Part shown: positions 2,110-36,443 of the stretch, one piece after another
How positions within the stretch are numbered: the first letter of the stretch is position 1
Layout: each line of letters opens with the position of its first letter
The notes under the pieces: model-generated
Databases searched by the model: none
Told to the model about the DNA's origin: nothing
The model's input: the letters and a program-made list of their open reading frames with translations, nothing else
Program-made: the position numbers and the translations under genes
Virus record (IMG/VR): IMGVR_UViG_3300020445_001189
Span: 1-55,199 of that record
Length of the DNA: 55,199 nt
Reading direction: 5' to 3' (one strand)
Origin: a virus
Lineage: Duplodnaviria; Caudoviricetes

Positions 2110-2647
2110 ACTCGCCTACGTTTTCCCAAGGATAAACAAGCCAACAATCTTCTTCAGCTTTATTAACTTCATCACAACTGTAAGTTACTCCATCAAACTC
2201 ACTAGCTAAATTTTCAGTTAGTACTGCAAACTTAACATTATGTCCCCAAGTCCTTGCCCACTTCTCAGGATCGTTATGTCGTGATTCCCAATCGTTCTTA
2301 ATCCAATTAAATGTAGCACCAGTATCATTGATGTCATCTACAATTAAAATCTTTTTGCTAGTTGGACTACCTGTTGCTATTTTACCATCTAAGATACCAA
2401 ATGCATCATCAGACATCCAATCAACACTATCTCCTGCTCTACCTGATTCGTTATCACGTAGACTTACTTTAATAGCTTCACAACGTATGCCAGTCATATT
2501 ACTAATAATAGTTGCTGGAATATTGCCTCCTCTAGTAATACCTACAATGTAGTCAGGTCTCCAATAGTCAGCATACATATCGTTTACAATGCTTACACAC
2601 ATCTTTTCTACGTCCGACCAACTATAGAACTTTTTCTTAATTTTCAT
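2099..2647 (-). CDS. type I phosphoribosyltransferase (purine PRTase-like)
   Basis: IVGITRGG and PRPP-binding ILIVDDINDTGAT, VYPWE. Start placed at 2647 after an AGGAG. Confidence 0.9.
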   Translation of the reverse strand: MKIKKKFYSWSDVEKMCVSIVNDMYADYWRPDYIVGITRGGNIPATIISNMTGIRCEAIKVSLRDNESGRAGDSVDWMSDDAFGILDGKIATGSPTSKKILIVDDINDTGATFNWIKNDWESRHNDPEKWARTWGHNVKFAVLTENLASEFDGVTYSCDEVNKAEEDCWLVYPWENVGEYGG

Positions 2648-3818
2648 TATTGCTCCTAATATTAAAGTTTCCACTAATAGAATACCTATCAGTATCTGTT
2701 ATATTTTTCCCAGTATAATGAGAAACCCTGGAATCGAATACTAAAAGCATACCAGCTTTAGGCTGAATAACTTTTTCAAAGCGAGGCATATCATTTACAA
2801 AAACTGTAAAATGTAAGTCACCTTGACCATCTTTGTGTTCAGGATAATACACAAAAGAATATAAACTGTTTGTATGACTGTGAAAGGCAGTACTGCCATT
2901 CGGTTCAGTCTTATGTGTCCAGATACCCGTCAGCTCGACGTTTTGTTTTGCATACGCCATAACTGATCTCTCTACTTCCCCCATGAAGTGCATACAGGTA
3001 TCTGAACCGGGGAACTTAATGTCTTCATAGTGGGTATCTTCAGGGTTAGCGTCAATTCTTTCTTGATGTTGTGTAATGTCATTCATTAACAAATCGTTAT
3101 TAACATTAGATAGATTTGTTTCATATACATCAATACTTGCAATATTATGTTTGATATCTGTAACTGGCAAAGGTGGTACATATTCTTGATGCCATGGATA
3201 AGTCTTTTCATCACCCATAACAATTCCGCCTTCTCCTTTGCCGTGTTTTTCTTTTAAAAATTTAATAAATTTAAATGTTGGTGTAAACCTATGAGTATTT
3301 CTCAAAGGTGTTGCAGTATGTAATATGTTACTTTTCCATAGTATCATTCTGCCTGGAATAGGTGGAATAGCAATTATTTCTGGAAAGTCATCTCCTCCAT
3401 CTGTATTTGCTCCTTGTCTTAAGTTTGTAATAAACTTTGTTTCTCCACCGTCATTAATATCCCAATTATTATTTGCATAAAACATAAATGTCCAGGCTTC
3501 GTCACTTTCATCATCAACGTGATAATGAGCTGTTTCCTTAGGAGCAAATATATTTGCCGCACTTCTTTTTAAAATACAACCATGTGTTTGTGGTAAGTAT
3601 TCTTCGCAAACTTTCCATAATGCATGAAAAGTTTTTGTATTCGTGTATTCACCTGTTGCCATTCCTGTTGGCGGTAAATCTTTGTCGTCTACTTCACCAT
3701 ATAGATAAGGCCAACTTTGTACATCTTGTACAAGTTCATTAAGCTCTGGTGGGCTAAAATAATTATCTATGATAATCATATCGCCATTTAGCTTTTGTGT
3801 TATCTTAGGTGTAGTCAT
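2637..3818 (-). CDS. tandem two-domain 2OG-Fe(II) oxygenase
   Basis: Domain 1: HVD...GGET...LHTA...R. Domain 2: HSH...SFVYY...VSHY...RYSISGN. Confidence 0.82.
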   Translation of the reverse strand: MTTPKITQKLNGDMIIIDNYFSPPELNELVQDVQSWPYLYGEVDDKDLPPTGMATGEYTNTKTFHALWKVCEEYLPQTHGCILKRSAANIFAPKETAHYHVDDESDEAWTFMFYANNNWDINDGGETKFITNLRQGANTDGGDDFPEIIAIPPIPGRMILWKSNILHTATPLRNTHRFTPTFKFIKFLKEKHGKGEGGIVMGDEKTYPWHQEYVPPLPVTDIKHNIASIDVYETNLSNVNNDLLMNDITQHQERIDANPEDTHYEDIKFPGSDTCMHFMGEVERSVMAYAKQNVELTGIWTHKTEPNGSTAFHSHTNSLYSFVYYPEHKDGQGDLHFTVFVNDMPRFEKVIQPKAGMLLVFDSRVSHYTGKNITDTDRYSISGNFNIRSNNEN

Positions 3819-6500: not shown

Positions 6501-7020
6501 CCTCTTTTATTGGTGTATCTCTACCATATTCTTCCCAATTTGTAAATTGGGTCTCCAGTTTAAGATCCTTAACGTGATGGATCCAAACACCCTTATTGCT
6601 ATGTTTAAAATCGTTATCATCAATTTTAATACAAGCCTTATTATTCAATTTTTCTATATTGGGTACTTTAACACTAATCTGTGAAATAAAATTATCAAAA
6701 CGATTGTAATCAAAAGCAATTACGTGTTCATGATATTTGATATCATAGTCCAAAGTTACTAACCAACCTTCTTCCAATAATGGCATAATCATATCGTCCC
6801 AATCTTCTTTTTGATCATCATTTGTAGGATTGAAACTTTGATTAGCACCCAAATAAATGTGTTTACAATCATTCTCTCTTGCTTGGTCCATAACATCAAC
6901 TGACATTTGTGTACCTACAACAAACAATGTTCTTTCTAGATGTGCAGGAGTTTTCTCTACTTCGTTACCAACAAAGTATTCTACATTATCCTTTACACCA
7001 TTATCGTAATCACGTTTCAT
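6493..7020 (-). CDS. hypothetical protein in the modification cluster
   Basis: 175 aa alpha/beta pattern, overlapping neighbours. Confidence 0.65.
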   Translation of the reverse strand: MKRDYDNGVKDNVEYFVGNEVEKTPAHLERTLFVVGTQMSVDVMDQARENDCKHIYLGANQSFNPTNDDQKEDWDDMIMPLLEEGWLVTLDYDIKYHEHVIAFDYNRFDNFISQISVKVPNIEKLNNKACIKIDDNDFKHSNKGVWIHHVKDLKLETQFTNWEEYGRDTPIKEVD

Positions 7021-7594
7021 TTATATCTCCGTTAAAAGCAATACTAATTCTATCTCTGCTACTTCTATTTGCATTTGCATTATGCAATAAGTAACTTGGA
7101 AAGCAAACTAGCTTACCTGTCTCTGGTTTAATTCTAAATCTTGTACTATTCCATTCATTAGGTTGTTTAATATATCTATACGGAACTGCATAATCATATA
7201 ACTGATGTGGACTAAACAAAGTTAGTTCTCCACAGTTATCATCTGCCTGTGCATAGTATACACAACTTAAAACATTTCTATCATGCATATGAACTTGATT
7301 AATGTTAGTTGTTGCACCTTGTGGATAGTTAATATTAATCCATTCGTTTTTAATACTAATAGGACAATTAATATGGTAGTATTCTTTTTCTACCTTTGTC
7401 ATCATTTCTTGTACTTTAGTTTTTAATTCAGTAAAACGATCATCTTCGATACGCCAATCACTTTGCCAGCCACCTTCTTGCTCACCCCAAATTATTTCCT
7501 TTTTCATATTATAACAAGCCTCTACAATAGTTTTGTTATCTATGTCAAGATACTCTTCTACTAAAAGAGTTGGAAATAACGAAGTTGTTTGCAT
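7010..7594 (-). CDS. 2OG-Fe(II) oxygenase (TIGR02466-like)
   Basis: LFPT, WININ, HMH, LSCVYY, FPSYLLH, RISIAFN. Confidence 0.9.
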   Translation of the reverse strand: MQTTSLFPTLLVEEYLDIDNKTIVEACYNMKKEIIWGEQEGGWQSDWRIEDDRFTELKTKVQEMMTKVEKEYYHINCPISIKNEWININYPQGATTNINQVHMHDRNVLSCVYYAQADDNCGELTLFSPHQLYDYAVPYRYIKQPNEWNSTRFRIKPETGKLVCFPSYLLHNANANRSSRDRISIAFNGDINET

Positions 7595-7788
7595 TACATT
7601 CTCGCTAACTTATCTTTGATTGCTAATTTAATTTTCTTTATTCTTTGTAATACTTCTTTACTTTCCCATGATCTATTTGTTTTACGTTCTTCAGTCATTT
7701 CAGAAGTTTTACTATCGTACCACTTGTGATCATATTCAAGTTTCTTTTTAGCTCTACTTGGTTTCTTTATTTTTTTAGCTTTGTTCAT
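7594..7788 (-). CDS. small basic coiled-coil protein
   Basis: 64 aa, GGAGG RBS, C-terminal KKIKLAIKDKL. Confidence 0.6.
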   Translation of the reverse strand: MNKAKKIKKPSRAKKKLEYDHKWYDSKTSEMTEERKTNRSWESKEVLQRIKKIKLAIKDKLARM

Positions 7789-9313
7789 TTTCTAAATCCT
7801 CCAACTTACTGTCATCTAAATCCTCAACTTCAGTTTCTTCAGCAACAGGAACACTATCAGCATCATCAAATAAATTATTAAATTGTGTTTGTGCATTAAC
7901 AATTCTTTTACCTGTGTTACCTCTTGTTCCAATGATAGTATCCCAGAATCTTGAAAACTCTGCAATAATCATATTTGCTTTATCTCTATCATCTGTTGCA
8001 AAAATGGCATCAATTACATCTCTAAAATATAACCTGTCAAATTTTTCTTGTACTAACATATTAGGATAAACACCTGCGTCATATTGTCTATTAGCTTCTT
8101 GTACTGCATTAATATGACTCCATACGTTATGTGCCATCTGTATAGCATAACTAAAGCTATCCCAACTTGTTTTACCTTCTTTACCTATTTTATTTAGGTC
8201 TCCTGGAGCATATATGCATATATCTTTTACTGTTAATCCTTTACTTACAGGACTATCTGTAAAGTTTTTAAATATACCATCTGCTAATACTCCATCTCTA
8301 AAGTTACGTGTATCTTGTGCATACTTCTTATCGTCTATGCTAGGTACCATTCGATACACCCATTTAGTTCTATCTACTGTTTCTGTTTGAATATAAAGTT
8401 GTCCATTAGCAGTTGCTAAAAACGGACTTGCACAATCAAATGTTACAGTAAAGTTTGGATTGTGATACTTACGAACTGCTCTTTGAATGTCAGTTAATAG
8501 TACTGCCCACTCTAGTTTACTTGTTCCTAAGAAGTGCATAAAGTCATGCAATCCTTTTTCTAACAATCCATCAAAACGTAGTGCAACTAATCTTTTCAAT
8601 ATTAAGTGAATGTCGCACATATTCTGGCCACCCATTGACCAACCATTAAAGTGATCTGTATATTTCTTAGGATCACAATAGTCTTTCATTTGCTGATACC
8701 AATCTTCTGCGTCAGCATGGTTTTCACCTTGTAATACATTTAAGAATTTACAATTACCATTTCTATTTTTCATAAAGTAATCGTTATTAATTCTTGTAGC
8801 ATTTACGGCATCCTGGTAATTGTCAATACCCGTTGCTTTTGCACCAGCAGGGGATCTTGCCACCCAGGCAGGAATATCAAGTATCATTCCATAGTCCATA
8901 TAAGCATCCATCCACGTAAGGACTTGTTCACGTTTCTTTTTAGCTTTAGGACAATTAGGATCTTTCCAATCACCTTCCCATACACCCTTACCAATCTGGA
9001 AACCACCTGAGTCTCCTAGTAACCAAGAATTGTTACGATCCCTATTACGAACCATATCTTCTTTGGGTGCATTTTTATTAACGTCTAACTCGGCGTGTCC
9101 TGCCGAATATAGACTCCAGTGATAGTTGAACATACTAGCTTTAGGTTCAAGCCAGTTTAAACTTTCTACTTCTGTTGGAAAGTTCTTAGGTATTCTACTT
9201 TTTTCAACATATTCCTCATACCTTTGTTTACCTACAAACGTAGCGAAGAATCCACTAATGGCAGGGAGAAATACTGCATAGTCTTTTTGTGCATTAGTTA
9301 GATCTGTATTCAC
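7775..9313 (-). CDS. tRNA-guanine transglycosylase-like protein (DpdA-like DNA 7-deazaguanine transglycosylase)
   Basis: TGT motifs in order: DSGGFQ, LDIP, VLQG, MGG, HFLG, FDCASP, HN. No CxCxxC zinc site. GTG start with GGAG RBS. Confidence 0.82.
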   Translation of the reverse strand: MNTDLTNAQKDYAVFLPAISGFFATFVGKQRYEEYVEKSRIPKNFPTEVESLNWLEPKASMFNYHWSLYSAGHAELDVNKNAPKEDMVRNRDRNNSWLLGDSGGFQIGKGVWEGDWKDPNCPKAKKKREQVLTWMDAYMDYGMILDIPAWVARSPAGAKATGIDNYQDAVNATRINNDYFMKNRNGNCKFLNVLQGENHADAEDWYQQMKDYCDPKKYTDHFNGWSMGGQNMCDIHLILKRLVALRFDGLLEKGLHDFMHFLGTSKLEWAVLLTDIQRAVRKYHNPNFTVTFDCASPFLATANGQLYIQTETVDRTKWVYRMVPSIDDKKYAQDTRNFRDGVLADGIFKNFTDSPVSKGLTVKDICIYAPGDLNKIGKEGKTSWDSFSYAIQMAHNVWSHINAVQEANRQYDAGVYPNMLVQEKFDRLYFRDVIDAIFATDDRDKANMIIAEFSRFWDTIIGTRGNTGKRIVNAQTQFNNLFDDADSVPVAEETEVEDLDDSKLEDLENEQS

Positions 9314-9322
9314 TCGCCTCTC

Positions 9323-10054
9323 CTATTTAGATTGTGCAGGTAAAATATAGTTATAAGTTGCTAATCCCGAATCAACACTAATTTGCATAGCACCTTGATC
9401 TGAGATTTTCATAGTTAGCTTACCATCAAGTCCAAGTATTGCTTGTACCTGTGCTACCGGCCAACTCCATGCGTGTTTTAGTTCACCTGTAATACTTTTA
9501 GCAAAATCAAATGATCCTGCGTGTGTACTGTGATCACCAAAGTAAAATACTAAATTATTATTTTCAGTTTTTACTGTAAACACAGTTTCTTCTGTATGAG
9601 CCGCACTTTGCAATTTCATTCTAGTAATACTTGCAATAGACGGTTCAAGTTCTACTTCCCACGTAGCACCTTTAAACTTAACACTCTTAAGTTTCTCGTT
9701 AATAATTTCCTGATTCATAAATCTATAATCATTTTGGAAATCACCTGCTTCGTTTTCAAAGTGAATATGTGTTGGAACTTCTGCTCCATTACGAGTTGCT
9801 TTCTCTACAGAAAGTTTTGCGTTCTTTTGATACTCTGGATTCTTTAAGTGTAAAGCCAGTTTATCTAAATTAGGCATACCAAATGTTGCCGCAAACTCTG
9901 TTACAGGATTTTTAGTATCAGCAGTTAGAATAACACTTCTGTCTTCTGCCATACTTTCGATTTGTGTATTTGCGTCATCTCCTGTAACTTTCACTAGATT
10001 TAAAAAGCCTAGCGAATGTGTATGTGCAACTACATCTTGTAAGATATCTTTCAT
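9323..10054 (-). CDS. DNA sliding clamp (PCNA/gp45-like)
   Basis: 243 aa, AEDRSVIL and FGMPNL, C-terminal YNYILPA like the PCNA YYLAP. PolB and a clamp loader occur in the same window. Confidence 0.7.
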   Translation of the reverse strand: MKDILQDVVAHTHSLGFLNLVKVTGDDANTQIESMAEDRSVILTADTKNPVTEFAATFGMPNLDKLALHLKNPEYQKNAKLSVEKATRNGAEVPTHIHFENEAGDFQNDYRFMNQEIINEKLKSVKFKGATWEVELEPSIASITRMKLQSAAHTEETVFTVKTENNNLVFYFGDHSTHAGSFDFAKSITGELKHAWSWPVAQVQAILGLDGKLTMKISDQGAMQISVDSGLATYNYILPAQSK

Positions 10055-10077
10055 TAGTTTTTCTCCATTGATCTCTT

Positions 10078-10106
10078 ATTGTATATTAATTTAATCATAA
10101 AGTCAA
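10078..10106 (-). promoter_or_regulatory. sigma70-like promoter for the clamp/modification operon
   Basis: TTGACT-N17-TACAAT upstream of a GGAG RBS. Confidence 0.75.
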
Positions 10107-10826
10107 GTCCTTTTGCGATTTTAAGTAGTCAAATAAATTGATTTTACTTGTCCAACCCAAATCCTTTAATTTTGAAACGTCAGCTTTATTACAAAGTCTT
10201 TCCGTTTCGTCACCAATTCTTTCTTCGACTTGCATATCGAAAAAATCAGTAATCTCTTTTAATGGTGTACTTACACCCGTTCCTATATCCATAATGCCTT
10301 TTGCATCTCGATTCATAAGAAACGAAATGGCACTACAAATATCGTCTATGTGGATAAAATCTCGTTTGTGATTTGTGTGTATATAAGAAAGATCCTTACG
10401 AAGTAAACGAGGAATAAACATTTTTGGCCTTTGCTGACTATTACTATATATAGTGCAAAAACGCAGGCCTAAACTTGTTTGTGGCGCAATACGTTCCATT
10501 GTGTGTTTACTCATTGCATAAGGATTTCTAGCAGGTTCTTTTGCAGTACTTGAACTAGCATATATTATCCTTGTGCCTTTAAATTGGTCAAAAATTCTTT
10601 TAGATGCCATTACGTTATTGTCCCAAAAGTGTTTAGGATCTTTTAAACTTAAAGGCAAGCCAGTTGCTCCAGCTAAATGGATTACTAAATCTACATCATA
10701 ATTTAAATCACAAGTTAGTAGATCGTTTCCATCTTCTCTATCAAGACAAGTAACTTGGTGAGCAGATAACCATTTAAGTAGGTGTGAACCTACAAACCCT
10801 TTGCTACCAGTTAAAAGTATTTTCAT
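10095..10826 (-). CDS. NAD-dependent epimerase/dehydratase (extended SDR)
   Basis: TGSKGFVG, HLAG, ASSS, YAMSK (YxxxK), RDFIHIDD. Confidence 0.92.
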   Translation of the reverse strand: MKILLTGSKGFVGSHLLKWLSAHQVTCLDREDGNDLLTCDLNYDVDLVIHLAGATGLPLSLKDPKHFWDNNVMASKRIFDQFKGTRIIYASSSTAKEPARNPYAMSKHTMERIAPQTSLGLRFCTIYSNSQQRPKMFIPRLLRKDLSYIHTNHKRDFIHIDDICSAISFLMNRDAKGIMDIGTGVSTPLKEITDFFDMQVEERIGDETERLCNKADVSKLKDLGWTSKINLFDYLKSQKDLTL

Positions 10827-11083
10827 TATTGTTCCTTAATTACTGGTTCATCACCAAATGCATCATTTGATTCTTCTAATTGTTTTTCAAATGATTTCTT
10901 TTGGTCTTCAGTCATTATATCCTTGCATTTAGAACTATCACCTAAACATTCAAAGAACTTATCCATAGCATTCATTGTTTTTTGTTCAGGAGTAGGTTTT
11001 GTAGTGCAATTTGTTATTAACACTAAAACAACTATAAGGCAAGAAATCAATAATAACTTTTTACTTAATTTTATTTTTTCCAT
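10826..11083 (-). CDS. putative lipoprotein
   Basis: Basic N-terminus, hydrophobic stretch, ITNC lipobox-like motif. Confidence 0.55.
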   Translation of the reverse strand: MEKIKLSKKLLLISCLIVVLVLITNCTTKPTPEQKTMNAMDKFFECLGDSSKCKDIMTEDQKKSFEKQLEESNDAFGDEPVIKEQ

Positions 11084-11628
11084 TGTCTTCCTTTCACTCC
11101 AAAGTGTTTATAAGTTGACTGTATACACTTTGCTTGATAATAACAGTCTGCTAATGCATTATGCATTTCTTCTTGAATAGCTTTACGTGGATCGCTTGGC
11201 ATCATACCAAACACAGTTCTACTATCTCTAATTTGCCAGAAGTTCCATGGAGTAGGTTTATTAATATTTTTATATAGGTCTTGTAATATAGCATAGTCAA
11301 ATAAAGGACCTTGGCACCATAATTCATCAAGACCTACACAAAATTTATTAATAGCTTTTGTAAGCTGATCCATATTAACACGATCTTTATGTTCACCGAA
11401 TGCTTCGTCTTGAATTTTTTGTGGTTGTTTAGTCCACCACTCCATTGTGTTGTCATCAATAGTTCTACCTAACTGTTCTGATTGTTCTTCTATATCACAA
11501 CGTAGGTACAAACCACTATGTGGTTCTTCATTACTAAATGGATCAAACTTAATTGCTCCTAAAGTAATAATTACACTATTAGGTTCAACACCTAAAGTTT
11601 CCAAGTCTATCATTCCGTGTGTAGCCAT
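11071..11628 (-). CDS. DEDDh 3'-5' exonuclease
   Basis: IDLETLG, FDYAIL, RDSRT, HNALAD. Confidence 0.9.
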   Translation of the reverse strand: MATHGMIDLETLGVEPNSVIITLGAIKFDPFSNEEPHSGLYLRCDIEEQSEQLGRTIDDNTMEWWTKQPQKIQDEAFGEHKDRVNMDQLTKAINKFCVGLDELWCQGPLFDYAILQDLYKNINKPTPWNFWQIRDSRTVFGMMPSDPRKAIQEEMHNALADCYYQAKCIQSTYKHFGVKGRQWKK

Positions 11629-11632
11629 ATGC

Positions 11633-11761
11633 CTATATTAACCTCATTAAAATAAAAACCTGTAAAATAAGTACTGCGATTGGAACGATGGTTCTAATAA
11701 ATTCCATAGTATGGTTATACTCGTCCATCTTCCTTTCAAACTTGTTTCGTTTATTCTTCAT
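11633..11761 (-). CDS. small membrane protein (42 aa)
   Basis: Hand translation MKNKRNKFERKMDEYNHTMEFIRTIVPIAVLILQVFILMRLI; GGAGG RBS; fills the gap between genes. Confidence 0.65.
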   Translation of the reverse strand: MKNKRNKFERKMDEYNHTMEFIRTIVPIAVLILQVFILMRLI

Positions 11762-14432
11762 TGTTACCTCCAAAATCAAATAAGTTATTAAAAGTGTTCT
11801 TTTGTAAGGTACTCTGGATGTCGTAATCTAACACCCCTATTAAATTACCGAGCTTATTATCGATAATTGTTTCTTCCATTGCTTCGTTATCAAACGGAAG
11901 AGCTTTAAACCATTCAGGCAATCTTAATTCATCTGTAGGATATGCAACAGATGTATAGCCTAATGGGTTTTGTTTTAGTTTACATACTACAACTTTCATA
12001 CCGTCAACAATCTCTTGACTGTACTTGTCGCCGTTCATACGTTTAAGTGTATTCCAATTAATACTAGCTCGAACGTGTCCGGGCATATTTGCTTTACCTT
12101 CTCTTTGTTCTTTACGTTGATAGTCCCCGATTCTATTTGCACGTTTAGGTGATCCTTTTTCGTGTCCAGGACGTAGTTTAAATTCTGTTCTAAATTCACT
12201 AATACGTTCTAAAATCTCTTTTTCACTTTTCTCTTGTAACACCATCATTAATAGTTCACTTAAAAAGTCTTGCATAAACACAGGTGTATCAGAACGTTTA
12301 AGATCTAATCCCATAGCTTTTACTTTACCTGGCTTACCATCTACATCTGTACGTTGTCCTTCGTTATCATATATTAAGGCCGCATATCTTTTCTTTGTAA
12401 TATACAAACCAGATTCTGCAACAATTTCTCTACCTGCCGCAATTACATCTGATCTACTCTTAGGACAATGAAATGCCTCCATCATAAACTTACCAAACGT
12501 TTTGTTTGCTTCTCCACATACTTGATCATAAAGTTTAATAACACTATCTTTAGTCCAAGGTATTGTTCCTGCTTCTATTTCTTTTTTAAGTATTGGAAAA
12601 GCACTAAAGTAAACTGAATCTGTATCACCGTATATTATACTATCTCCTACGTGATCATATGTGCCTGTAATAACTTTATTAACCTCGGCGCTCATGTGCT
12701 TTGCAATAGCACGACCAGTAAGTGTAGTACTTTGGCCAATACGTTTATCAAAAAACCTACAACCAGGGTTAAGAATAGCACCGTATAAACTGTTAAGATT
12801 AATTTTTTTAACAAGCTGACGTTTATCCCAAAACGCAATTTCTGTTTGATTTCCTGCATCGATGGCTTTTCCTTTCATCGCTTGTAGCTCTTTACGTTCT
12901 TGATACCAACGTTTAAGCAATCCAGGTATAACACCATCAAACTCATTTGTAAGTATTGTTCCGTTAGCAGTAAGCATCCATGGTTGGTTGCTATCATAAA
13001 TTAGTTTATATACTTCCGCGGCACTTAACATTTCGCTATCGCCATTTTCAAAGTCAACTGTTATGTCAAAGTCTTTTCTCTTTTCCATAACTGCTTCATA
13101 TTCTAGTGTACCAAACTTACCTTCCCAAGCACCTGCAAATGACTTCTTCTGAAGTGTCATTTGATCTTCTACAAAGGCGTTAGTATGATCTGGACGAAGT
13201 TGTCCTATAATAGTTGCTGGATCCATATTCAAAGCTCTAATAACAGATGGATATAGTGAATTTAAGTCCATTGAACCTATCCACTTATGTACACCCTTTT
13301 TAGGAAATGCAACATAGGCACCAGCCGCCGCCGTGTTTTCTTCATCACGTTTCGGCCTATTAGGAACTTGTAATCCTCTGTGATGTGCTTCGTTAATAAT
13401 TGCTTGTTCTGTAACTGCTACTGCACCCATTGTTGTTTGTAGCAAAACAGTATTTGCATGAGCTAGTTCATTTGATAAATCTATAAACTTTAATTTTTTA
13501 TCCAGCTTGTCCAGTAGTGCAACGTCTTGTCTGTTGTACTCAATGAACGTTCTGAAGTCATTGTTATAAAGTTGATCGAGTGTACCTTCATACACAGTTT
13601 TCTTTTCACCAACTTCAAGTTCACCAATAGCATCAAGTCTGTAAGTATGTCTTTCTTCATATGTATATTTACGATATAGTTCTAAACTATCTAAATGTAC
13701 TCTACCTATTAGGTCATACGTTTCAGCTTTTTTACCATACTTTTCATATTCACGTTTTTTAGGAAGTTGTTTCCATAAACAAAAACGTCTTGTATCATCT
13801 TTACTTAAAACTCTTGATACACGATTTACTGTATAAGGAATATCATAACCTTCACTGTTCCAACCAGTAAGTACATCACTATCTTGTATTAAGTCGAGAA
13901 ATGCTTGTAACATATCTCCTTCTTTTGCAAACAAGTGTGTATTAGGAAAATCTTTTACTTGTTGTTCTGCTTGTTCCATTGTAAGTGTCTTAGGTGGAAT
14001 AGCAAGTGTAACTAAAGTATCTAACCATTGTAAGTGTACTGTGATTGCAGTAATTGGCATAAACGGATCGCTAGGATCAGCAAATCCTCTTTCAGGATCA
14101 AAGTCTGTTTCAATATCAAAAAATGCTATATTAAGTTTAGGTGCATCAACATTTAAGTACTGTTCACTTAAACATTGGAATATTGGATTAACGTCTGATT
14201 CGAATAATTCTTTGTTTTGATTTATTGCAAGTTCTTTTCTAAACTGCTTTGTATTTCTAGCTACAATTCGATTTAAAGGATCACCATATATACTTTTATA
14301 TTTTCCTCTTTGGTCTTTATAAAAGAATGTATACTTAACTGGATATTCTGTAAAATGTCGTTTACCATCTTTACGTTCTACTACTCTGATAACGTCCTGG
14401 TCTCGATCAAATTGTGCGTCTACGTAACTCAT
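11751..14432 (-). CDS. family B DNA polymerase (gp43-like)
   Basis: ExoI FDIET, DLNSLYPS, KINLNSLYG, YGDTDS, KKRYA. Confidence 0.97.
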   Translation of the reverse strand: MSYVDAQFDRDQDVIRVVERKDGKRHFTEYPVKYTFFYKDQRGKYKSIYGDPLNRIVARNTKQFRKELAINQNKELFESDVNPIFQCLSEQYLNVDAPKLNIAFFDIETDFDPERGFADPSDPFMPITAITVHLQWLDTLVTLAIPPKTLTMEQAEQQVKDFPNTHLFAKEGDMLQAFLDLIQDSDVLTGWNSEGYDIPYTVNRVSRVLSKDDTRRFCLWKQLPKKREYEKYGKKAETYDLIGRVHLDSLELYRKYTYEERHTYRLDAIGELEVGEKKTVYEGTLDQLYNNDFRTFIEYNRQDVALLDKLDKKLKFIDLSNELAHANTVLLQTTMGAVAVTEQAIINEAHHRGLQVPNRPKRDEENTAAAGAYVAFPKKGVHKWIGSMDLNSLYPSVIRALNMDPATIIGQLRPDHTNAFVEDQMTLQKKSFAGAWEGKFGTLEYEAVMEKRKDFDITVDFENGDSEMLSAAEVYKLIYDSNQPWMLTANGTILTNEFDGVIPGLLKRWYQERKELQAMKGKAIDAGNQTEIAFWDKRQLVKKINLNSLYGAILNPGCRFFDKRIGQSTTLTGRAIAKHMSAEVNKVITGTYDHVGDSIIYGDTDSVYFSAFPILKKEIEAGTIPWTKDSVIKLYDQVCGEANKTFGKFMMEAFHCPKSRSDVIAAGREIVAESGLYITKKRYAALIYDNEGQRTDVDGKPGKVKAMGLDLKRSDTPVFMQDFLSELLMMVLQEKSEKEILERISEFRTEFKLRPGHEKGSPKRANRIGDYQRKEQREGKANMPGHVRASINWNTLKRMNGDKYSQEIVDGMKVVVCKLKQNPLGYTSVAYPTDELRLPEWFKALPFDNEAMEETIIDNKLGNLIGVLDYDIQSTLQKNTFNNLFDFGGNNEE

Positions 14433-15607: not shown

Positions 15608-15637
15608 ATTATACACTCTTTGCCTGCGGTCTGTCAA
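15608..15637 (-). promoter_or_regulatory. sigma70-like promoter
   Basis: TTGACA-N18-TATAAT. Confidence 0.8.
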
Positions 15638-16154
15638 TAGAAATATTGCCGGCAATTACAATTCTTTCTTTATCCAATTTTTGTTCTGGTACTCCGTGTG
15701 TTACCCAACCTGGAAATACAATCATTAATCCTGGATTTGGATATATTGCATTACCGCTAGTTGGAAATACTAATGGAGCATCATCTGGTGTTGCGTCTAC
15801 GTAGTAAACGAAACTCCACGTGGCCGGGTGATGTGCGTGTGCATTTGTGCTATCACCTTTCCTATAAACTGCTCCCCAGCAATCTGTAGGATAATATCTG
15901 CCCAATTCTTTATGTGCTAGACCACCTTCGATACATTCGATAGCAAAATTAACAATCTTTTCAAAATCAACATCTTCAAACATAGACCATTTAGTCATAT
16001 CAGCTTGAACATTAGTTTTTCGAAACTGTTGATCTCCTTCAGCTTTTATTTTGTTTGCAAGAATTGGATTCAAACTTTCTGCATCAGGATAGACAGCAGT
16101 AAATACGTCTGCTTTTTCTTTGAATTCTAAATTTTGTACGTTAGGCTCTAACAT
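15609..16154 (-). CDS. 2OG-Fe(II) oxygenase (TIGR02466-like)
   Basis: HAH, WSFVYY, FPGWVTH, RIVIAGN. Confidence 0.88.
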   Translation of the reverse strand: MLEPNVQNLEFKEKADVFTAVYPDAESLNPILANKIKAEGDQQFRKTNVQADMTKWSMFEDVDFEKIVNFAIECIEGGLAHKELGRYYPTDCWGAVYRKGDSTNAHAHHPATWSFVYYVDATPDDAPLVFPTSGNAIYPNPGLMIVFPGWVTHGVPEQKLDKERIVIAGNISIDRPQAKSV

Positions 16155-23100: not shown

Positions 23101-23769
23101 TTAGTACTTATCTGTCTGTGGCTCGTAAACTAGCTTATCGATTCGCATAATATTGTTATGTAAAAATAGCCTAACTATTGTCAGGATTTTGTCATCTTTA
23201 ACATACAAATATTTGCCTTTTAAGTTTCGACCTTGTTGCAGATCACGTATAAGCCTATCACCAGCTTTAACTTTGTGGCTATTCTTTAAACAGTATTCTG
23301 CAAAGTTTCTATCAGCAGTTCCATTTAAGTTTATTTTGTAATTGTACTCGGAAGGTTTATCTAAATATATTGTATTCTTTGCTAAATCAGTATCAACATT
23401 AGGTTCCCAATACCAAGGAACATCATTTAACTTTCTTGCTATCTTTTTAAGCCAACTAGTATCATTAGAATATATACCAAGTCTAGATCCTTCACATCTT
23501 AACATATAGTCTACGTCATCTTGGAAAGCATTTACTAATATCTTTAAATCTTCAAAGTCTTTGTTTTGTATTTCTTGATCTTTTTGCGACCATCTATGTA
23601 ATTTAAAAGATAATGGTTCGCCTCTGGAGTGTTTATTTTGTAATTGATCTATAATAGTTCTAGCATTAGCAAGACGTTTGTTTCTAAAGATGTGTGTGCC
23701 AGAATTATACACGCCTAGCTTGTAGGCATACTTGTCCCAAAACAGTTTATTAGTTTGTTTTTTGATCAA
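23101..23769 (-). CDS. hypothetical protein
   Basis: 222 aa, GGAG upstream of a TTG start. Confidence 0.7.
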   Translation of the reverse strand: MIKKQTNKLFWDKYAYKLGVYNSGTHIFRNKRLANARTIIDQLQNKHSRGEPLSFKLHRWSQKDQEIQNKDFEDLKILVNAFQDDVDYMLRCEGSRLGIYSNDTSWLKKIARKLNDVPWYWEPNVDTDLAKNTIYLDKPSEYNYKINLNGTADRNFAEYCLKNSHKVKAGDRLIRDLQQGRNLKGKYLYVKDDKILTIVRLFLHNNIMRIDKLVYEPQTDKY

Positions 23770-26011
23770 CCTTCTCTTGCTCCTTAACCTTGGTAGTATT
23801 TAATACAAATTCTTTTTCATTTATATCGATATTTAAAGTACCGCCGTCTTTTAAGTCACCAAACAAGAGTTTTTTAGATAATGGTGTTTTAATTTCCTTG
23901 TCGATTACACGTTGTAAAGGTCTTGCACCCATTTTAGCATCAAAGCCTTTATCAACTAACAAGTCTATTGCACTATCAGAAACAGTAGTTACAACACTTT
24001 TCTCCGTAAGCATATTTTTTAGTTCTAATAAGAACTTGCCTACTATCTTGATCATAGTGTTCTTCTCAAGTTTGTTAAATGTCATTGTTCCGTCTAATCT
24101 ATTTCTAAATTCTGGTGCAAAGAATTTTTTAAGTTCTTTATCTTCGTATTCTTTTTCAATATTACCAAAGCCAATAGCATTACTTTCAGCTTCTTGTGAA
24201 CCTAAGTTAGTAGTTAAAATTAAAACAATGTTTCTACAGTCAGCAGTTTTACCATTTGATCCTGTAACAAAACCATTGTCCATAATTTGTAACAATAATG
24301 AACTTACGTCAGGGTGTGATTTTTCTATTTCATCTAACAATAGTACACAGTTAGGATGTTCTTGTAATTTAGTAATTAATAGTCCTGCATTTTCTTCAAA
24401 GCCAACGTAACCCGGAGGTGAACCTATTAGCTTGGCAACACTATGTTTCTCTTGATACTCTGACATATCAAATCTAACTAGCTTAACACCTAACTGACTA
24501 GCAAGTTGTTTTGCTGTTTCAGTTTTACCTACACCAGTTGGACCCATAAACACAAATGAACCAATTGGTTTATTCTCTTGTTTAAGTCCTGCCTGTGCAA
24601 CAAGTATTTTATCAACAATTTGGTCTATTGCTTTATCTTGTCCGTATATCTCGCCTTTTAAATTCTTTTCTAAATGTGCTAGATTTTCAGTTTCACGTTC
24701 TGCTACTTGTTCTTCTGGCAAGTTAATTGCTTTAGAAAGTTCAAACTGAATTTCAGTATCATTAATAACCTTTTCTACATTAGGATCTTTTAAATTAAAT
24801 CTAGAACAAGCACAATCAATTAAATCAATTGCTTTATCTGGAAGTTTTTTATCTGCTTGATACTTAACACTTAATTTAATTGCACTTTCAATAGCTTCTT
24901 CTGTAATAGTTGTACTATGAAACTCTTCGTAATAACGTTTAATACCCATTAAGATATCTTTAGTTACTTCTCTAGATGGTTCATCAACAGTTACTCTAGC
25001 AAACCTACGCATCAATGCACGGTCTTTTTCAAAGTACTTTCTATATTCTTCCCAAGTTGTACTTGCTACAACTTTAATATTACCTTTAGTTAGTATAGGC
25101 TTTAACATATTAGCTAAATCATTTGAATTAGCACCTCCGCCTGCACCAGCACCATTCATCATATGTGCTTCGTCTATAAACACGATTGTTTTACCACGTT
25201 TTTTAAGTGCGGCCATAACTAATTTAAAACGTTCTTCAAAGTCTCCTCTGTATTTAGAACCTGCTAACATGGCTCCTATGTCTAAATTATAAACACTATA
25301 CTCTTTTAAAAACTCTGGTACTGTTTTATTAACGATGTTCCAGGCAAGGCCTTCTGCAATAGCAGTTTTACCTACACCCGGATCACCGACTAGCAATACG
25401 TTGTTCTTACTTCTTCTACCCAATGCTAAAGCAATGGAATCTAATTCATCTATACGTCCTATAACAGGATCTATTTTACCTTGATCAACTTCTACGTTAA
25501 GATTAGTTGTAAATGACCTTAAAGCTCTAGTAGCCATACCAGCCATTTCTTCATCTTCGTAAGTGTCAGCTAATTCGTTGTTCAAGTAATCAGCAAACTT
25601 TTCTTTATCAATATTACATTTAGCAATATGGTAGTATGACCAGCTTTTCTTTTCATTCATAATGCTTAAGAATACATCTGAACAATCTATATGACTTCTA
25701 CCACTAAACAATACTTGCGTAAATGCTCTGTTTAAAACTCTTTCTACTGCGTGTGTTTTTTTAGGCTTATATTTCTTAGCCGCCGCAGGTTCCATCTGAA
25801 TCTTTTCAGTCTGCGTTTTTAAATAATTTTCAATGTTCTTTTTAAGGTACTCTGGATCAGCACCGTAACCTTCTATAATCTTTGCAAAGCTATCTTCACA
25901 TAACATCGCAAAAAGTAAATGTTCTATAGTAACGTACTCGTGTTGTAACTTCTTCGATACGTCTACGGCTTTATCAAAAACCAACTGTAACTGTTCACTT
26001 GGTTCAACCAT
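23750..26011 (-). CDS. clpA: ATP-dependent Clp protease ATP-binding subunit ClpA
   Basis: Clp-N (HEYVTIEHLL), two AAA+ modules GDPGVGKT and GPTGVGKT, IGF loop, no M-domain, 753 aa. Confidence 0.93.
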   Translation of the reverse strand: MVEPSEQLQLVFDKAVDVSKKLQHEYVTIEHLLFAMLCEDSFAKIIEGYGADPEYLKKNIENYLKTQTEKIQMEPAAAKKYKPKKTHAVERVLNRAFTQVLFSGRSHIDCSDVFLSIMNEKKSWSYYHIAKCNIDKEKFADYLNNELADTYEDEEMAGMATRALRSFTTNLNVEVDQGKIDPVIGRIDELDSIALALGRRSKNNVLLVGDPGVGKTAIAEGLAWNIVNKTVPEFLKEYSVYNLDIGAMLAGSKYRGDFEERFKLVMAALKKRGKTIVFIDEAHMMNGAGAGGGANSNDLANMLKPILTKGNIKVVASTTWEEYRKYFEKDRALMRRFARVTVDEPSREVTKDILMGIKRYYEEFHSTTITEEAIESAIKLSVKYQADKKLPDKAIDLIDCACSRFNLKDPNVEKVINDTEIQFELSKAINLPEEQVAERETENLAHLEKNLKGEIYGQDKAIDQIVDKILVAQAGLKQENKPIGSFVFMGPTGVGKTETAKQLASQLGVKLVRFDMSEYQEKHSVAKLIGSPPGYVGFEENAGLLITKLQEHPNCVLLLDEIEKSHPDVSSLLLQIMDNGFVTGSNGKTADCRNIVLILTTNLGSQEAESNAIGFGNIEKEYEDKELKKFFAPEFRNRLDGTMTFNKLEKNTMIKIVGKFLLELKNMLTEKSVVTTVSDSAIDLLVDKGFDAKMGARPLQRVIDKEIKTPLSKKLLFGDLKDGGTLNIDINEKEFVLNTTKVKEQEKVDQKTN

Positions 26012-26528
26012 TCATATATCCTTTAAAACGTTTCAATAATTTCATTTGTTTCCTTTTCGCCATATCTAATTTCAATTTACTAACTCTATCAATATAGTTG
26101 ATTCCGTAAAGATGATCATATTCATGACCAAAGATTCTTGCATTCCAACCTGTTAACTCTATTGTACACTCTTTTCCGCTAGAGTCAAGACACTCTGTTA
26201 CCAATCCTACTGGTCTTTTAACCTTAAAGTATAAAAGTGGAAAACTTAAACAGCCTTCTTCGCCTAATACCATCTCTTCTGATACTGCTGTAATTTTAGG
26301 ATTGATAATTGCAAAAGGTTTATCATCTTCGTAGTCCTTTAAACCGTTTGGCTTAATAATAAAAATTTGTGCATTAAGCTCAACTTGGTTTGCCGCCAAA
26401 CCTACACCCGATTGCTTCTCCATAATAGCAATCATTTCTTTTTCTACTTCTTTAGCATCATGCTTTTCAAAGTCGAAAGGATCTACTTTCTTTTCTAACC
26501 AATCATTTGGGTGATATATCAATTTCAT
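26004..26528 (-). CDS. def: peptide deformylase
   Basis: GVGLAANQ, EGCLS, HEYDHLYG. Confidence 0.96.
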   Translation of the reverse strand: MKLIYHPNDWLEKKVDPFDFEKHDAKEVEKEMIAIMEKQSGVGLAANQVELNAQIFIIKPNGLKDYEDDKPFAIINPKITAVSEEMVLGEEGCLSFPLLYFKVKRPVGLVTECLDSSGKECTIELTGWNARIFGHEYDHLYGINYIDRVSKLKLDMAKRKQMKLLKRFKGYMNG

Positions 26529-27369
26529 CTTTTATCTTTGCTAGTCTTTCTCTTATTTCTTCGTTAGTAATGTTTGGTGTTATTCCTACAACCTTAACAA
26601 ATAAATTTCCCGTTTGTCCTGACCTTTGATCTGGTAAACCTTGTCCACTAATGCTGAAAGTTGTATTGGAATTTGTGCCTGGAGGAACGTTAACACTTAA
26701 TTGCCTTTTATGTAAAGTATCAATTCTTATGTTTGTGCCTAATAGTAAGTCGAACACACTTACATTTCTTACTATATATAAATTTATGCCATCTACTTCA
26801 TAGTCGGTATGTCTTCTGACTCTTACTTTAACCAATAAGTTACCTCTTGGCATTTGTGGTACTTGATCACCACCCATTCCTGGATAACGTATTGTATCTC
26901 CTGGACGTACACCTTTTGGTAATGTAATGTTTACTGTTTGTTGTTTGCCACTAGGTAGTCTAAAGTTAGCTATTAGGTCTTTACCATTTATAATATCTTC
27001 TAATTCAATATCTGCGGCAATGGTAATGTCTGAATTACGCATCTGTCTTTGCCCAAATGGACTATTTGGTTGTGCAAATCCTTCGCCGAAAAATGTAGAA
27101 AATATTTCATTAAAGTCACCACCGTTAAAATGGAAACTTTGAGAGCTATTACGGAAGCCTTGTTGTTGTGGGTCAGCAGTTCCAAACTGATCGTACATTT
27201 GACGCTTGTTAGGGTCTTTTAAAGTTTGGTATGCTTCGTTAATTTTTTTGAATTCTTCTTGGTCACCACCGCGGTCAGGATGACTTTCCATAGACTTTTT
27301 CTTAAAAGCCTGTTTAAGTTCCTTATCTGATGCTCCTCGGGATACGCCGAGAGTATTGTAATAGTCCAT
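26503..27369 (-). CDS. DnaJ-class (class B, CbpA-like) co-chaperone
   Basis: J-domain with HPD, G/F region and C-terminal domain; no zinc finger. Confidence 0.92.
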   Translation of the reverse strand: MDYYNTLGVSRGASDKELKQAFKKKSMESHPDRGGDQEEFKKINEAYQTLKDPNKRQMYDQFGTADPQQQGFRNSSQSFHFNGGDFNEIFSTFFGEGFAQPNSPFGQRQMRNSDITIAADIELEDIINGKDLIANFRLPSGKQQTVNITLPKGVRPGDTIRYPGMGGDQVPQMPRGNLLVKVRVRRHTDYEVDGINLYIVRNVSVFDLLLGTNIRIDTLHKRQLSVNVPPGTNSNTTFSISGQGLPDQRSGQTGNLFVKVVGITPNITNEEIRERLAKIKDEIDISPK

Positions 27370-33672: not shown

Positions 33673-33996
33673 TTATCCTGTTCTGTAAATAATGTGTACA
33701 CCGAACTCGGTGACTATTGGGTGAACACCCATCTCGCCTTTAGGAATAGATTGACAGGCAGTAGTAAATTCTACTACCATATCTTCTGGTAAAAACCAAC
33801 CTAAATCTCCACCTGATCGCTTACCACTCGGACAAGCACTATTTTCTTTTGCGGCGATCTCAAAAGAAATTTTTCCATCTTGAATTTCTTTTTGTACACG
33901 TTCAGCGTCTTTCATTGCAAACGCAATACCTCGACTATGCGTACTGTTTTTCGCACCGGCATAAGAAAATAGAATATGTGAAGCTCTCATTTTCAT
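33673..33996 (-). CDS. parvulin-type peptidyl-prolyl isomerase
   Basis: ASHIL, SACPS...GGDLGWF, TEFGVHII. Confidence 0.93.
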   Translation of the reverse strand: MKMRASHILFSYAGAKNSTHSRGIAFAMKDAERVQKEIQDGKISFEIAAKENSACPSGKRSGGDLGWFLPEDMVVEFTTACQSIPKGEMGVHPIVTEFGVHIIYRTG

Positions 33997-34579: not shown

Positions 34580-35494
34580 TTACAACCTTGCTAGTTTGAT
34601 TAATGTTGCCGCTAAATTTATTTCTGGATCTACAACTAATGTATGATCCACTAATCCTTGTTTGATTATGATTGTTGCTTTATCTTGATTTTCCTCATTA
34701 CCAAACAATTCAATATTGTCATAAAGCCATCTGTAAACTTCTTCCATCTCTTCTGCTCTAGCACTTGCACAAACAAGTTTCCTTGCTTTTGTAATATCTC
34801 CTGCTTTAAACAGTTCGACCATTTCAAGTTTCCAGTCAGCTTCGTTTTTATCGCTTTCGTTTGGTTTAAGAAGTTTGCCGTCTTGTGAATTCATTTGTAC
34901 AGTATTAATACATTTACGTAAATCAGGATAACTTGCTTTTACATAAGTGTCAAGTGTATCTAAGTCTGGTTGTACACCTTCTGCAATTAAAATTTCTGCC
35001 ACTCTTGCTGTAAATTCGTTTGTGTCTACTTTTGCAATATGAAAGCCTTGACATCTACTATGAAGTGCAGGAATAATTCTGTTTGGATAGTTACAAGTTA
35101 ATATGAATCTACTTGTAGTATGATATTCTTCCATCACACCACGTAATGCCGCCTGTGCATTTGGACTTAAATAATCTGCCTCATCAAGTAGTACTACTTT
35201 AAATGGACCAAAAGGTATCATTTGTACAAAGTTTACAATTTTATCTCTTACATCATCAACACTATTTGTTCTACTTGCATTTATTTCAAGTACATCTAAG
35301 TCGTTAATTTCTAGTTCATTAAATAATAATTTTGCTAATGTAGTTTTACCTATACCTGCATTACCACTAAACAACAAATGCGGAATTGTCTTTTCTTTAA
35401 TCCATTGTTGTACTTGTGATTTTTGGTGTTCATCTCTAAACACATATCCGTCTACTGTTTTCGGACGATATTTTTCTACCCAAAGTTCTTTCAC
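34580..35494 (-). CDS. clamp loader AAA+ subunit (RFC small/gp44-like)
   Basis: WVEKYRP, GNAGIGKTT, INAS, LDEAD, SRC. Confidence 0.95.
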   Translation of the reverse strand: MKELWVEKYRPKTVDGYVFRDEHQKSQVQQWIKEKTIPHLLFSGNAGIGKTTLAKLLFNELEINDLDVLEINASRTNSVDDVRDKIVNFVQMIPFGPFKVVLLDEADYLSPNAQAALRGVMEEYHTTSRFILTCNYPNRIIPALHSRCQGFHIAKVDTNEFTARVAEILIAEGVQPDLDTLDTYVKASYPDLRKCINTVQMNSQDGKLLKPNESDKNEADWKLEMVELFKAGDITKARKLVCASARAEEMEEVYRWLYDNIELFGNEENQDKATIIIKQGLVDHTLVVDPEINLAATLIKLARL

Positions 35495-36414: not shown

Positions 36415-36443
36415 ATTATACAATAAAGATTAATAAAAGTCAA
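36415..36443 (-). promoter_or_regulatory. sigma70-like promoter
   Basis: TTGACT-N17-TATAAT. Confidence 0.8.

Follow-up and report, generated by a model that had tools for sequence, protein, structure and literature searches.

A polymerase-type tail motif suggests that a divergent transglycosylase-like enzyme of a marine jumbo phage may dock on the phage sliding clamp

How could an enzyme that exchanges DNA bases after replication reach its substrate in a fast-replicating phage genome? The question is raised by a 55,199-nt stretch of viral DNA (Duplodnaviria, Caudoviricetes; IMG/VR record IMGVR_UViG_3300020445_001189, positions 1 to 55,199), which was analysed over its whole length and is called the window below. 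It encodes, on one strand, a T4-type family B DNA polymerase (PolB), a sliding clamp and a 512-amino-acid (aa) protein related to tRNA-guanine transglycosylases (TGTs), and the disordered tail of the last repeats a hexapeptide, FNNLFD, that stands near the end of the polymerase. An initial annotation of the sequence had proposed that the TGT-like enzyme rides the phage clamp and modifies nascent DNA. We consider it reasonably likely that the protein is a divergent, DpdA-like enzyme that exchanges bases in DNA and that a clamp-interaction peptide like that of the polymerase brings it to phage DNA that has just been replicated; the locus suggests a phage that chemically disguises its own DNA while riding the replication machinery. 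More tentatively, such proteins could form a new DpdA-like subfamily, abundant in marine metagenomes, with every member an obligate client of the PCNA-type clamp of its virus and with hypermodification mechanically coupled to replication.

The genes and tail elements on which the argument turns are listed here; models were made with AlphaFold2 (AF2), and pLDDT is the predicted local distance difference test.

7775..9313, minus strand: TGT-superfamily (DpdA-like) enzyme, 512 aa; TIM barrel from aa 1 to about 465, then a disordered tail in the AF2 model
7778..7903, minus strand: disordered C-terminal tail of this protein, aa 471-512, pLDDT below 50
7865..7882, minus strand: FNNLFD in this tail, aa 478-483, the proposed clamp-docking short linear motif
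7781..7813, minus strand: terminal acidic amphipathic helix of the same tail, aa 501-511, KLEDLENEQ; a helix in the AF2 model
9323..10054, minus strand: PCNA-fold sliding clamp, 243 aa; AF2 pLDDT 89.5, Foldseek matches to PCNA
11751..14432, minus strand: T4-type PolB, 893 aa; Pfam DNA_pol_B and exo1, phrog_262 with E 2e-197
11775..11792, minus strand: FNNLFD in the C-terminal tail of PolB, aa 881-886; same form as the T4 gp43 end

The C-terminus of PolB reads ...LQKNTFNNLFDFGGNNEE (elsewhere given as TFNNLFDFGGNNEE), and the tail of the 512-aa open reading frame (ORF) contains ...NAQTQFNNLFDDADSVPVAEETEVEDLDDSKLEDLENEQS, followed by an acidic stretch. The translations agree with the initial annotation in that FNNLFD is common to the two proteins and an acidic tail follows it in the 512-aa one; no third ORF of the window has the hexapeptide. 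A degenerate DNA pattern for FNNLFD matched the window exactly twice against an expectation of 0.01, and none of 100 shuffles gave two matches. When the last 50 residues of the 179 window ORFs of at least 50 aa were scanned for hydrophobic-x-x-L-F, several matches were obtained. Only PolB and the 512-aa ORF were long, annotatable minus-strand genes of the replication region with the motif in the tail, the remaining matches being short plus-strand ORFs or ends of folded domains. The proposed likeness to a T4-type polymerase peptide is borne out by T4 gp43, which ends in ...SLDFLFG, the same form as the end of the window PolB. In T4 and RB69, the tails of gp43, gp33 and gp55 bind the gp45 clamp, and T4 ligase is a further gp45 client.

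The tail of the 512-aa protein behaved as a conserved short linear motif. Across 37 homologs, L481 and F482 were invariant and F478 was retained in at least 90%, with variable flanks. The pattern [FY]xxLF was kept in 120 of 120 close homologs among the matches listed. For IMG/VR ORFs, counted likewise among the matches listed (80 loci of the window clade, 10 of the P0266/P0297 clades and 75 ORFs of a distant scan), the strict core was found in 80/80, 5/10 and 53/75, respectively. Motif conservation in TGT-like homologs, which the initial annotation had set as a check, was thus evident in the close relatives. The 27 listed misses, read by eye, all carried a looser variant of the type LF, FF, HF or VF plus acidic or aromatic residues (LFDW, LFYEE, VFDFGED, HFESEE, FFEF*, NFDFT*; the asterisk marks the stop), except for locus L126. 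Many close homologs stop two to four residues past the motif (...QFGNLFEEV*, ...KYGELFE*), and it recurs in the distant lineages of Pseudomonas phage PA5oct and Vibrio phage 2.275.O and in about 85 further IMG/VR loci, usually together with the PolB-clamp-TGT-like gene order and with a tail similar to that of the cognate PolB.

The position at the C-terminus was itself enriched. Among 96 full-length representatives at 50% identity, 28 end no more than 4 aa from [LMF]F, compared with 2.4 ± 1.4 (maximum 6) for random truncations; in the same set, [LM]F lies in the last 50 residues in 52 proteins, compared with 14.3 ± 3.3 for internal windows. The element is hydrophobic, lies in a disordered terminal region and combines a conserved core with variable flanks, as is expected of a short linear motif.

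Endings of the D/E-x-L-x-x-L-E type, corresponding to the terminal helix, were found in 35 of 80 window-clade ORFs, in 53 of 75 distant ORFs and in PA5oct. As separate observations on this part of the tail, the acidic helix takes the form D/E-D-x-L-x-x-L-E (EKLTELEQGL in PA5oct, DDDELRALEE in many loci; tails L001 and L127-L205) and is not present in the variants that end right after LF. A subgroup of the TGT-like family has no LF tail (L126, P0318, P0335, P0336, P0363, P0377) and ends with another conserved motif, W-x-T-(T/D)-D-L-E-E-F; at L126, no PolB or clamp match was found within its 12 kb.

The premise that the product of 9323..10054 is a clamp was confirmed at the level of fold. Its ORF had no Pfam match, its sole PHROG match was to a family of unknown function, and a PDB sequence search gave one chance match only (E 0.8). 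The AF2 model has the two-domain DNA-clamp fold of about 240 aa, and its top 50 Foldseek matches were all PCNA or 9-1-1 clamps (probability 1.00, TM-score 0.58-0.71), including the PCNA structures of yeast, Sulfolobus, human and African swine fever virus (e.g., 7tib_G, E 1.7e-10, TM-score 0.67). Comparison of the clamp family with T4 gp45 by hhalign detected no profile similarity (probability 0.2); this is therefore a PCNA-fold clamp of its own lineage. Its expected partners are encoded by the same phage, the loader within the window:

34580..35494, minus strand: clamp-loader large subunit (gp44/RFC-like AAA+); phrog_168 with E 1e-78, Pfam AAA, DNA_pol3_delta2 and Gp44_lid

PolB adjoins the clamp in the window and in four isolated jumbo-phage lineages (PA5oct, Vibrio 2.275.O, Phosso and Atu_ph07). 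According to the part of the text by Iyer et al. available to us, the loaders of group 2 jumbo phages are RFC-like and their clamps belong to the PCNA superfamily (PMC7824862).

The TGT-like gene lies immediately downstream of the clamp gene, as had been noted, with a gap of 9 nt and both on the minus strand. The order PolB-clamp-TGT-like is kept in the window, PA5oct, Vibrio 2.275.O and the P0266 clade, whose proteins share about 55% (PolB), 40% (clamp) and 35% (TGT-like) identity with those of the window. In the scan of distant members, a clamp match was present in 78 of the 80 loci listed, and the PolB end lay 0.7-2.6 kb upstream of the TGT-like gene in 72 of 80. Phosso is an exception, its TGT-like gene being located elsewhere, beside primase and helicase genes.

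The complex of the clamp, as three copies, with tail residues 462-497 was then predicted using separate alignments for both partners. The interface score ipSAE was 0.69, 0.74 and 0.69, against 0.00, 0.01 and 0.00 for three controls. Of 80 solved complexes, 58 reach the pass mark, as do 2 of 110 mismatched pairs; this calibration is only rough for a trimer with own alignments. The runs shared at least 65% of their contacts, with a partner pLDDT of at least 56. Tail residues 472-478 and 480-486 were placed against clamp residues 38-42, 119, 123-130, 157-158, 197, 199, 220-222 and 237-243. The loop that links the two domains in the clamp model consists of residues 122-131. Because these contacts include both the connector loop and the C-terminus, the predicted site is the canonical pocket under the interdomain connector, beside the C-terminus. 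Among 29 clamp homologs, 18 of the 27 contact residues were invariant, compared with 107 of 243 overall (p = 0.011). The prediction that had been suggested for the clamp trimer and the TGT-like peptide thus placed the motif in the interdomain pocket, at an ipSAE of 0.69 versus 0.01 for the best control, and it suggests that the tail may bind the clamp.

The identity of the enzyme was addressed by fold and by residue conservation. An exhaustive HMMER search delimited a family of 1001 clusters at 50% identity, of which 92 diverse members were aligned for the model and for residue conservation. The AF2 model of the 512-aa protein has a pLDDT of 90.5 and is confident for residues 1 to about 465. 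Its top Foldseek matches were all TGTs, and the structural match to T. maritima TGT (2ash_B; VIA) had a Z-score of 19.4 and a root-mean-square deviation of 4.3 over 306 aligned residues. A fold search of about 48,000 cluster representatives ranked ArcTGT, QTRT2 and Z. mobilis TGT first to third (Z 18.4, 17.8 and 17.1), followed by the DNA preQ0 insertase DpdA (7ui4_A, Z 15.8, 310 residues aligned) and Cap10 in ranks four and five; other TIM barrels reached Z 11.8 or less. DpdA is not distinguished from the tRNA enzymes by these scores (Z 18.4-15.8). By hhalign, the family aligned with E. coli Tgt (probability 86.9, E 4e-6), with LNVLQG placed on GIIQG. Nine alignment columns were invariant in the 92 members, including D101, S102 and G104 of GDSGGFQ, D146 and D293. 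The codons of the three aspartates are as follows.

9011..9013, minus strand: Asp101 in GDSGGFQ, invariant in 92; aligned to E. coli Tgt D89 (DSGGFQ)
8876..8878, minus strand: Asp146 in ILDIP, invariant in 92; aligned to E. coli Tgt D143 (IFDEC)
8435..8437, minus strand: Asp293 in TFDCASP, invariant in 92; aligned to E. coli Tgt D264 (MFDCVMP)

The position of E. coli Tgt D264 is that of the covalent nucleophile in TGTs. As the three TGT aspartates are kept and aligned, the catalytic machinery for base exchange has been preserved. The TGT-like label of the initial annotation therefore holds in that the fold lies well above other barrels and the catalytic aspartates are conserved.

Family assignment by sequence gave a different result. 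The 512-aa protein had no Pfam, PHROG or PDB sequence match (the last by phmmer), and Pfam TGT (PF01702) had no match in the six frames of the window while all 14 control genomes were matched. None of the 92 members had DUF6610, the Pfam family of DpdA4, among its reported matches. The family profile found no match in the whole of Campylobacter phage CP220, a DpdA3 carrier, an empty answer that is uninformative by itself. Three distant single proteins (P0290, P0335, P0287) had no relatives among the viral contigs searched. The fold and the catalytic and substrate aspartates place the protein in the TGT superfamily, and PF01702 does not recognise it. It is a divergent TGT-superfamily enzyme that, with the models and profiles used here, is not recognised from its sequence as belonging to one of the DpdA subfamilies described so far (bDpdA, DpdA1-4).

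What it acts on is suggested by gene context. No recognisable deazaguanine-pathway gene was present in the 55-kb window. In five related contigs (19-56% complete), FolE occurred in four and PTPS/QueD in three; in a 93%-identical relative, FolE follows the TGT-like gene at a distance of about 9 kb downstream, which would be just past the window's left end. QueE is encoded 3 kb from the PA5oct homolog of the TGT-like protein (QCG76197; EST35_0316), and the Vibrio-phage homolog is followed by a QueF-like reductase, QueC, an amidotransferase-like (Gat-QueC-like) protein, FolE and a YhhQ-type transporter. Precursor genes for 7-deazaguanine, whose co-occurrence is expected of DpdA, are thus found in relatives. 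A preprint describes PA5oct DNA as resistant to several enzymes with G in their sites and suspects a G modification; in the sections accessible to us, it names QueE and PTPS in PA5oct and no transglycosylase (PMC12191111). A deazaguanine synthesis/incorporation system is also attributed to PA5oct, among other jumbo phages, in the available text of Iyer et al. 2021 (PMC7824862). Taken together, FolE and PTPS in relatives, the queuosine-pathway genes at the Vibrio homolog and the G modification suspected in PA5oct point to DNA as the probable substrate, and the same context may hint at the identity of the inserted base.

These elements can be assembled into a mechanism. The (F/Y)-x-x-L-F core with acidic residues in the disordered tail would copy the clamp-interaction peptide of the phage's own T4-type polymerase and would fit into the hydrophobic pocket that lies beneath the interdomain connector loop of the presumably trimeric PCNA-fold clamp. 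With its motif in that pocket, the enzyme could occupy a free protomer of the clamp loaded at forks by the phage loader, slide on fresh duplex and swap guanine for a 7-deazaguanine-type base. Such an arrangement might bring a gain in efficiency or in selectivity for phage DNA, and tethering may, as the initial annotation proposed, restrict modification to phage DNA.

Within lineages, the TGT-like tail resembles that of the cognate PolB. The pairs were as follows (asterisk, stop).

PA5oct: PolB HFDSLFGW*; TGT-like SFNSLFDVD followed by an acidic tail
Vibrio 2.275.O: PolB NNTDLFDW*; TGT-like NNNDLFGW*
Phosso: PolB TFNDLFTF*; TGT-like IVEGLF*
P0266 clade: PolB TTFDDLFDF*; TGT-like VVNNLFDFS*
L140: PolB NTFNKLFDFE*; TGT-like NEFNKLFDFDD
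L154: PolB LQAFFEF*; TGT-like LNEFFEF*
L204: PolB MDAFFEF*; TGT-like SMFFDEE

The core was strongly kept on both sides: in PolB F, L and F were found in 88, 94 and 97 of 97, and in the TGT-like tail F/Y, L and F in 79, 92 and 96 of 97. Of the co-variation that the initial annotation had proposed to examine, one part stood, since parallel changes are striking in a few outlier lineages, and the other did not, the signal at the variable positions being weak in a shuffle test. For this reason, the likeness consists mainly of the common core and of a few parallel departures in outlier lineages.

The motif was also specific at the scale of whole phages. In the Vibrio phage record (349 kb), [LF]F[GDE]W-stop had five matches, three of which end annotated genes, namely PolB, the TGT-like protein and a 74-aa protein; the other two were one antisense match inside dnaB and one without a following stop. 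In the PA5oct record (287 kb), F[DN]xLF[GDE] had four matches, in frame within genes only for PolB and the TGT-like protein; of the remaining two, one was antisense and one contained an internal stop. Ten loci of the P0266/P0297 clades together hold 263 genes, of which 22 have [LM]F followed by at most 3 aa at their end; PolB and TGT-like genes account for 18 of these.

Three side observations concern these tails. The 74-aa protein is the Cys-rich hypothetical protein NVP2275O_204 (L091:2214-2438), which ends in ...SSLFEW* and is a candidate third clamp client. An ORF of 188-190 aa about 1 kb downstream of the TGT-like gene (L111:9624-10190 and L112:12603-13175) ends in ...KIVEE(K/R)MF(P/G) and was the only recurrent non-PolB, non-TGT match of the C-terminal [LM]F scan. 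Finally, PolB is split in PA5oct (homing-endonuclease gene; L001:1-4831) and in Atu_ph07 (two adjacent ORFs; L005:4001-6970), with the clamp-type tail on the C-terminal piece; the window PolB is one ORF.

Several results weigh against a clamp-docked DpdA-like enzyme. On the docking side, complexes of PCNA with PCNA-interacting protein (PIP) peptides and of gp45 with its peptides have already been solved, so that a passing prediction shows likeness and is no proof of binding. The motif of the window protein is internal, with 29 aa after it, whereas the T4 motif is terminal. At six variable positions, the identity of cognate PolB and TGT-like motifs was 1.505 versus 1.385 ± 0.071 after shuffling, a value reached by 258 of 5000 shuffles (97 distinct pairs, four mis-picked motifs dropped, relatedness not controlled). 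The PA5oct clamp homolog EST35_0314 (L001:4912-5658) is annotated as 'structural protein (ESI-MS/MS)', i.e., from virion mass spectrometry, which is odd for a clamp. On the side of the chemistry, a PDB profile search with the 512-aa protein found no TGT, Pfam TGT matched 2 of the 92 family members (best E 0.043), and PADLOC DpdA matched one of the 92 (E 2e-4), which was not the query itself. The query has a single Cys (C366) after residue 300, and no Cys-rich zinc cluster is visible by sequence; the structural zinc site of TGTs is Cys-x-Cys-x2-Cys...His. Cap10 is nearly as close in fold (Z 14.8), and QueC was absent from all five related contigs, at 19-56% completeness.

These points give room to other explanations. 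The shared motif may dock both proteins on some other common partner, such as the host beta clamp, the clamp loader, or a phage single-strand-binding protein or helicase, in which case it would reach the replisome all the same for the enzyme as well, by a route other than the phage clamp. The host beta clamp recognises a Q-L-x-L-F-like consensus and the window tail reads TQFNNLF; a Q before the aromatic residue is present in many TGT-like tails, TQFxxLF being the commonest form (Q at position -1 in 29 of 97 distinct pairs), and the second conserved acidic helix of the tail has no assigned partner. We nevertheless regard this as unlikely, since the phage has a clamp and clamp loader of its own, the PolB tail has the T4 gp43 form, the TGT-like gene adjoins the clamp gene in most lineages, and the prediction puts the motif in the canonical pocket of the phage clamp, with controls at or below 0.01. 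That the tail has no docking function and the motif reflects chance or composition is very unlikely: the motif is short and its variable positions lack convincing co-variation, but two matches were not reproduced in 100 shuffles, all 120 and 80 close relatives kept it, the C-terminal enrichment is about tenfold across the family, and in two phages the motif is exclusive genome-wide.

Other alternatives concern the reaction. The tail could bind the clamp while the barrel performs a different chemistry at the fork, glycosylase-like, with exchange of another base, or conjugating a base to protein as Cap10, a TGT-family enzyme, does in attaching deazaguanine to protein. The protein's lack of sequence-level DpdA or TGT membership, the seemingly missing zinc motif, the proximity of Cap10 in fold, the absence of QueC from the partial contigs and the many radical S-adenosylmethionine (SAM) genes of relatives, whose role is unassigned, all speak for such a reaction. 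Set against the invariance of the three TGT catalytic aspartates, the presence of FolE and PTPS in relatives, a nearly full preQ pathway beside the Vibrio homolog and the G modification suspected in PA5oct in the available preprint text, it appears rather improbable. A queuosine-type TGT that modifies tRNA and tunes translation, with a tail motif unrelated to catalysis, would agree with the best fold matches being tRNA transglycosylases and with the fact that jumbo phages often carry tRNAs. However, the gene stands among replication genes, beside the clamp in most lineages, its polymerase-type tail is conserved, the window contains no tRNA gene, and the fold scores rank tRNA enzymes and DpdA together; we assign this explanation little probability. 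Clamp-tethered DNA base exchange by a DpdA-like enzyme accordingly remains our preferred reading.

The proposed arrangement combines features of several known systems. Cellular enzymes tethered to clamps include DNMT1, UNG2, FEN1 and ligase I on PCNA and MutS/MutL on the beta clamp. As in those clients, an enzyme acting on all new duplex would carry a PIP-like peptide and ride the clamp behind the fork, a coupling that may be likened to that of DNMT1 and PCNA in eukaryotes; those eukaryotic or bacterial host systems serve methylation or repair, whereas in the present case the clamp would be that of a virus and the reaction a hypermodifying base swap. With the T4 gp43 peptide, the tail shares a hydrophobic-x-x-L-F element, located in a disordered region at its C-terminus or close to it, and the predicted interdomain pocket of a trimeric clamp. 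It differs in that the gp45 clients are a polymerase, transcription factors and a ligase, whereas this client would be a DNA-base-exchange enzyme; in that the window clamp is PCNA-like by fold, without profile similarity to gp45; and in that the motif, terminal in T4, is internal and followed by an acidic helix in the window protein.

With DpdA, the window family shares the TGT fold, the catalytic aspartates, a phage origin and the occurrence of FolE, QueD, QueE and other pathway genes in relatives; it differs in having no sequence-level match, a greater length (about 510 aa), a clamp-type tail and no visible Cys-rich zinc motif. Cui/Hutinet et al. 2023 defined DpdA1-4 and, in the text available, argue that every modification of this type is introduced after replication, without using the word 'clamp'; in phage phiST, too, DpdA3 is encoded between pathway genes and polymerase genes (PMC10516641). 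The accessible text of Iyer et al. 2021, on the same phage group, does not mention a clamp-binding transglycosylase tail (PMC7824862). A literature search over titles and abstract openings found no publication on a clamp-docked DpdA, in line with the initial annotation, which knew of none. The use of a PIP-like peptide by a clamp client is a well-known principle; what appears to be new is the class of client, its viral setting and the subfamily of the enzyme.

Modification of DNA with 7-deazaguanine is a widespread counter-defence of phages. A clamp-docking tail would answer how a post-replicative enzyme converts many guanines in a fast-replicating genome, namely by processive scanning behind the fork, and the coupling, if true, would explain both a very high or complete replacement of guanine and the sparing of non-replicating host DNA. 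It would also identify the missing 'insertase' of PA5oct-like, Rak2-like and many uncultured marine jumbo phages, in which the homologs are now 'hypothetical proteins', and widen the list of viral clamp clients past replication and transcription factors. The second acidic helix could then be a further handle, serving, e.g., in a hand-off from the polymerase or in keeping the enzyme self-inhibited while it is not on the clamp. The system is tractable, as PA5oct and Vibrio phage 2.275.O are cultured relatives and the motif comprises six residues.

The window itself derives from a marine jumbo myophage of the Rak2 / PA5oct / Atu_ph07 group. PHROG and Pfam annotation yielded the gene set of a T4-like myophage, with baseplate and tail-fibre genes, the clamp loader, thymidylate synthase, PhoH, MazG, many 2-oxoglutarate (2OG)-Fe(II) oxygenases and a fragment of a split Pol III alpha. 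The nearest isolated relatives of PolB, the 243-aa protein and the 512-aa protein are jumbo phages, namely Sinorhizobium phage Phosso, Agrobacterium phage Atu_ph07, Vibrio phage 2.275.O, Pseudomonas phage PA5oct and the Rak2/121Q group. Since the record is only 16% complete according to CheckV, the whole phage probably measures about 350 kb. Close relatives are very frequent in marine metagenomes: for each protein, nearly all of 8000 scored candidates had E ≤ 0.001.

Further features of the window and its relatives were recorded. Five 2OG-Fe(II)-oxygenase-like ORFs lie within the 55 kb (2637-3818, 7010-7594, 15609-16154, 36440-36991 and 36988-37839, all on the minus strand); one of them is directly downstream of the TGT-like gene, with a 64-aa basic ORF (7594-7788) in between. 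A 185-aa ORF at 39167-39724 (minus strand) matched Pol III alpha in its NTPase part alone (PF07733), in agreement with the split minimal form of this subunit that the available text of PMC7824862 describes in group 2.2 jumbo phages. A protein-quality-control set at 23750-27369 and 33673-33996 (minus strand) comprises an ATP-dependent protease (phrog_4871, 753 aa), a peptide deformylase, a DnaJ-like protein and a PpiC-type rotamase. In phages related to that of the window (G001, G002, G003 and G005), radical-SAM genes form clusters of four to nine genes each (e.g., G001:C1:72561-95188), one of which may encode QueE.

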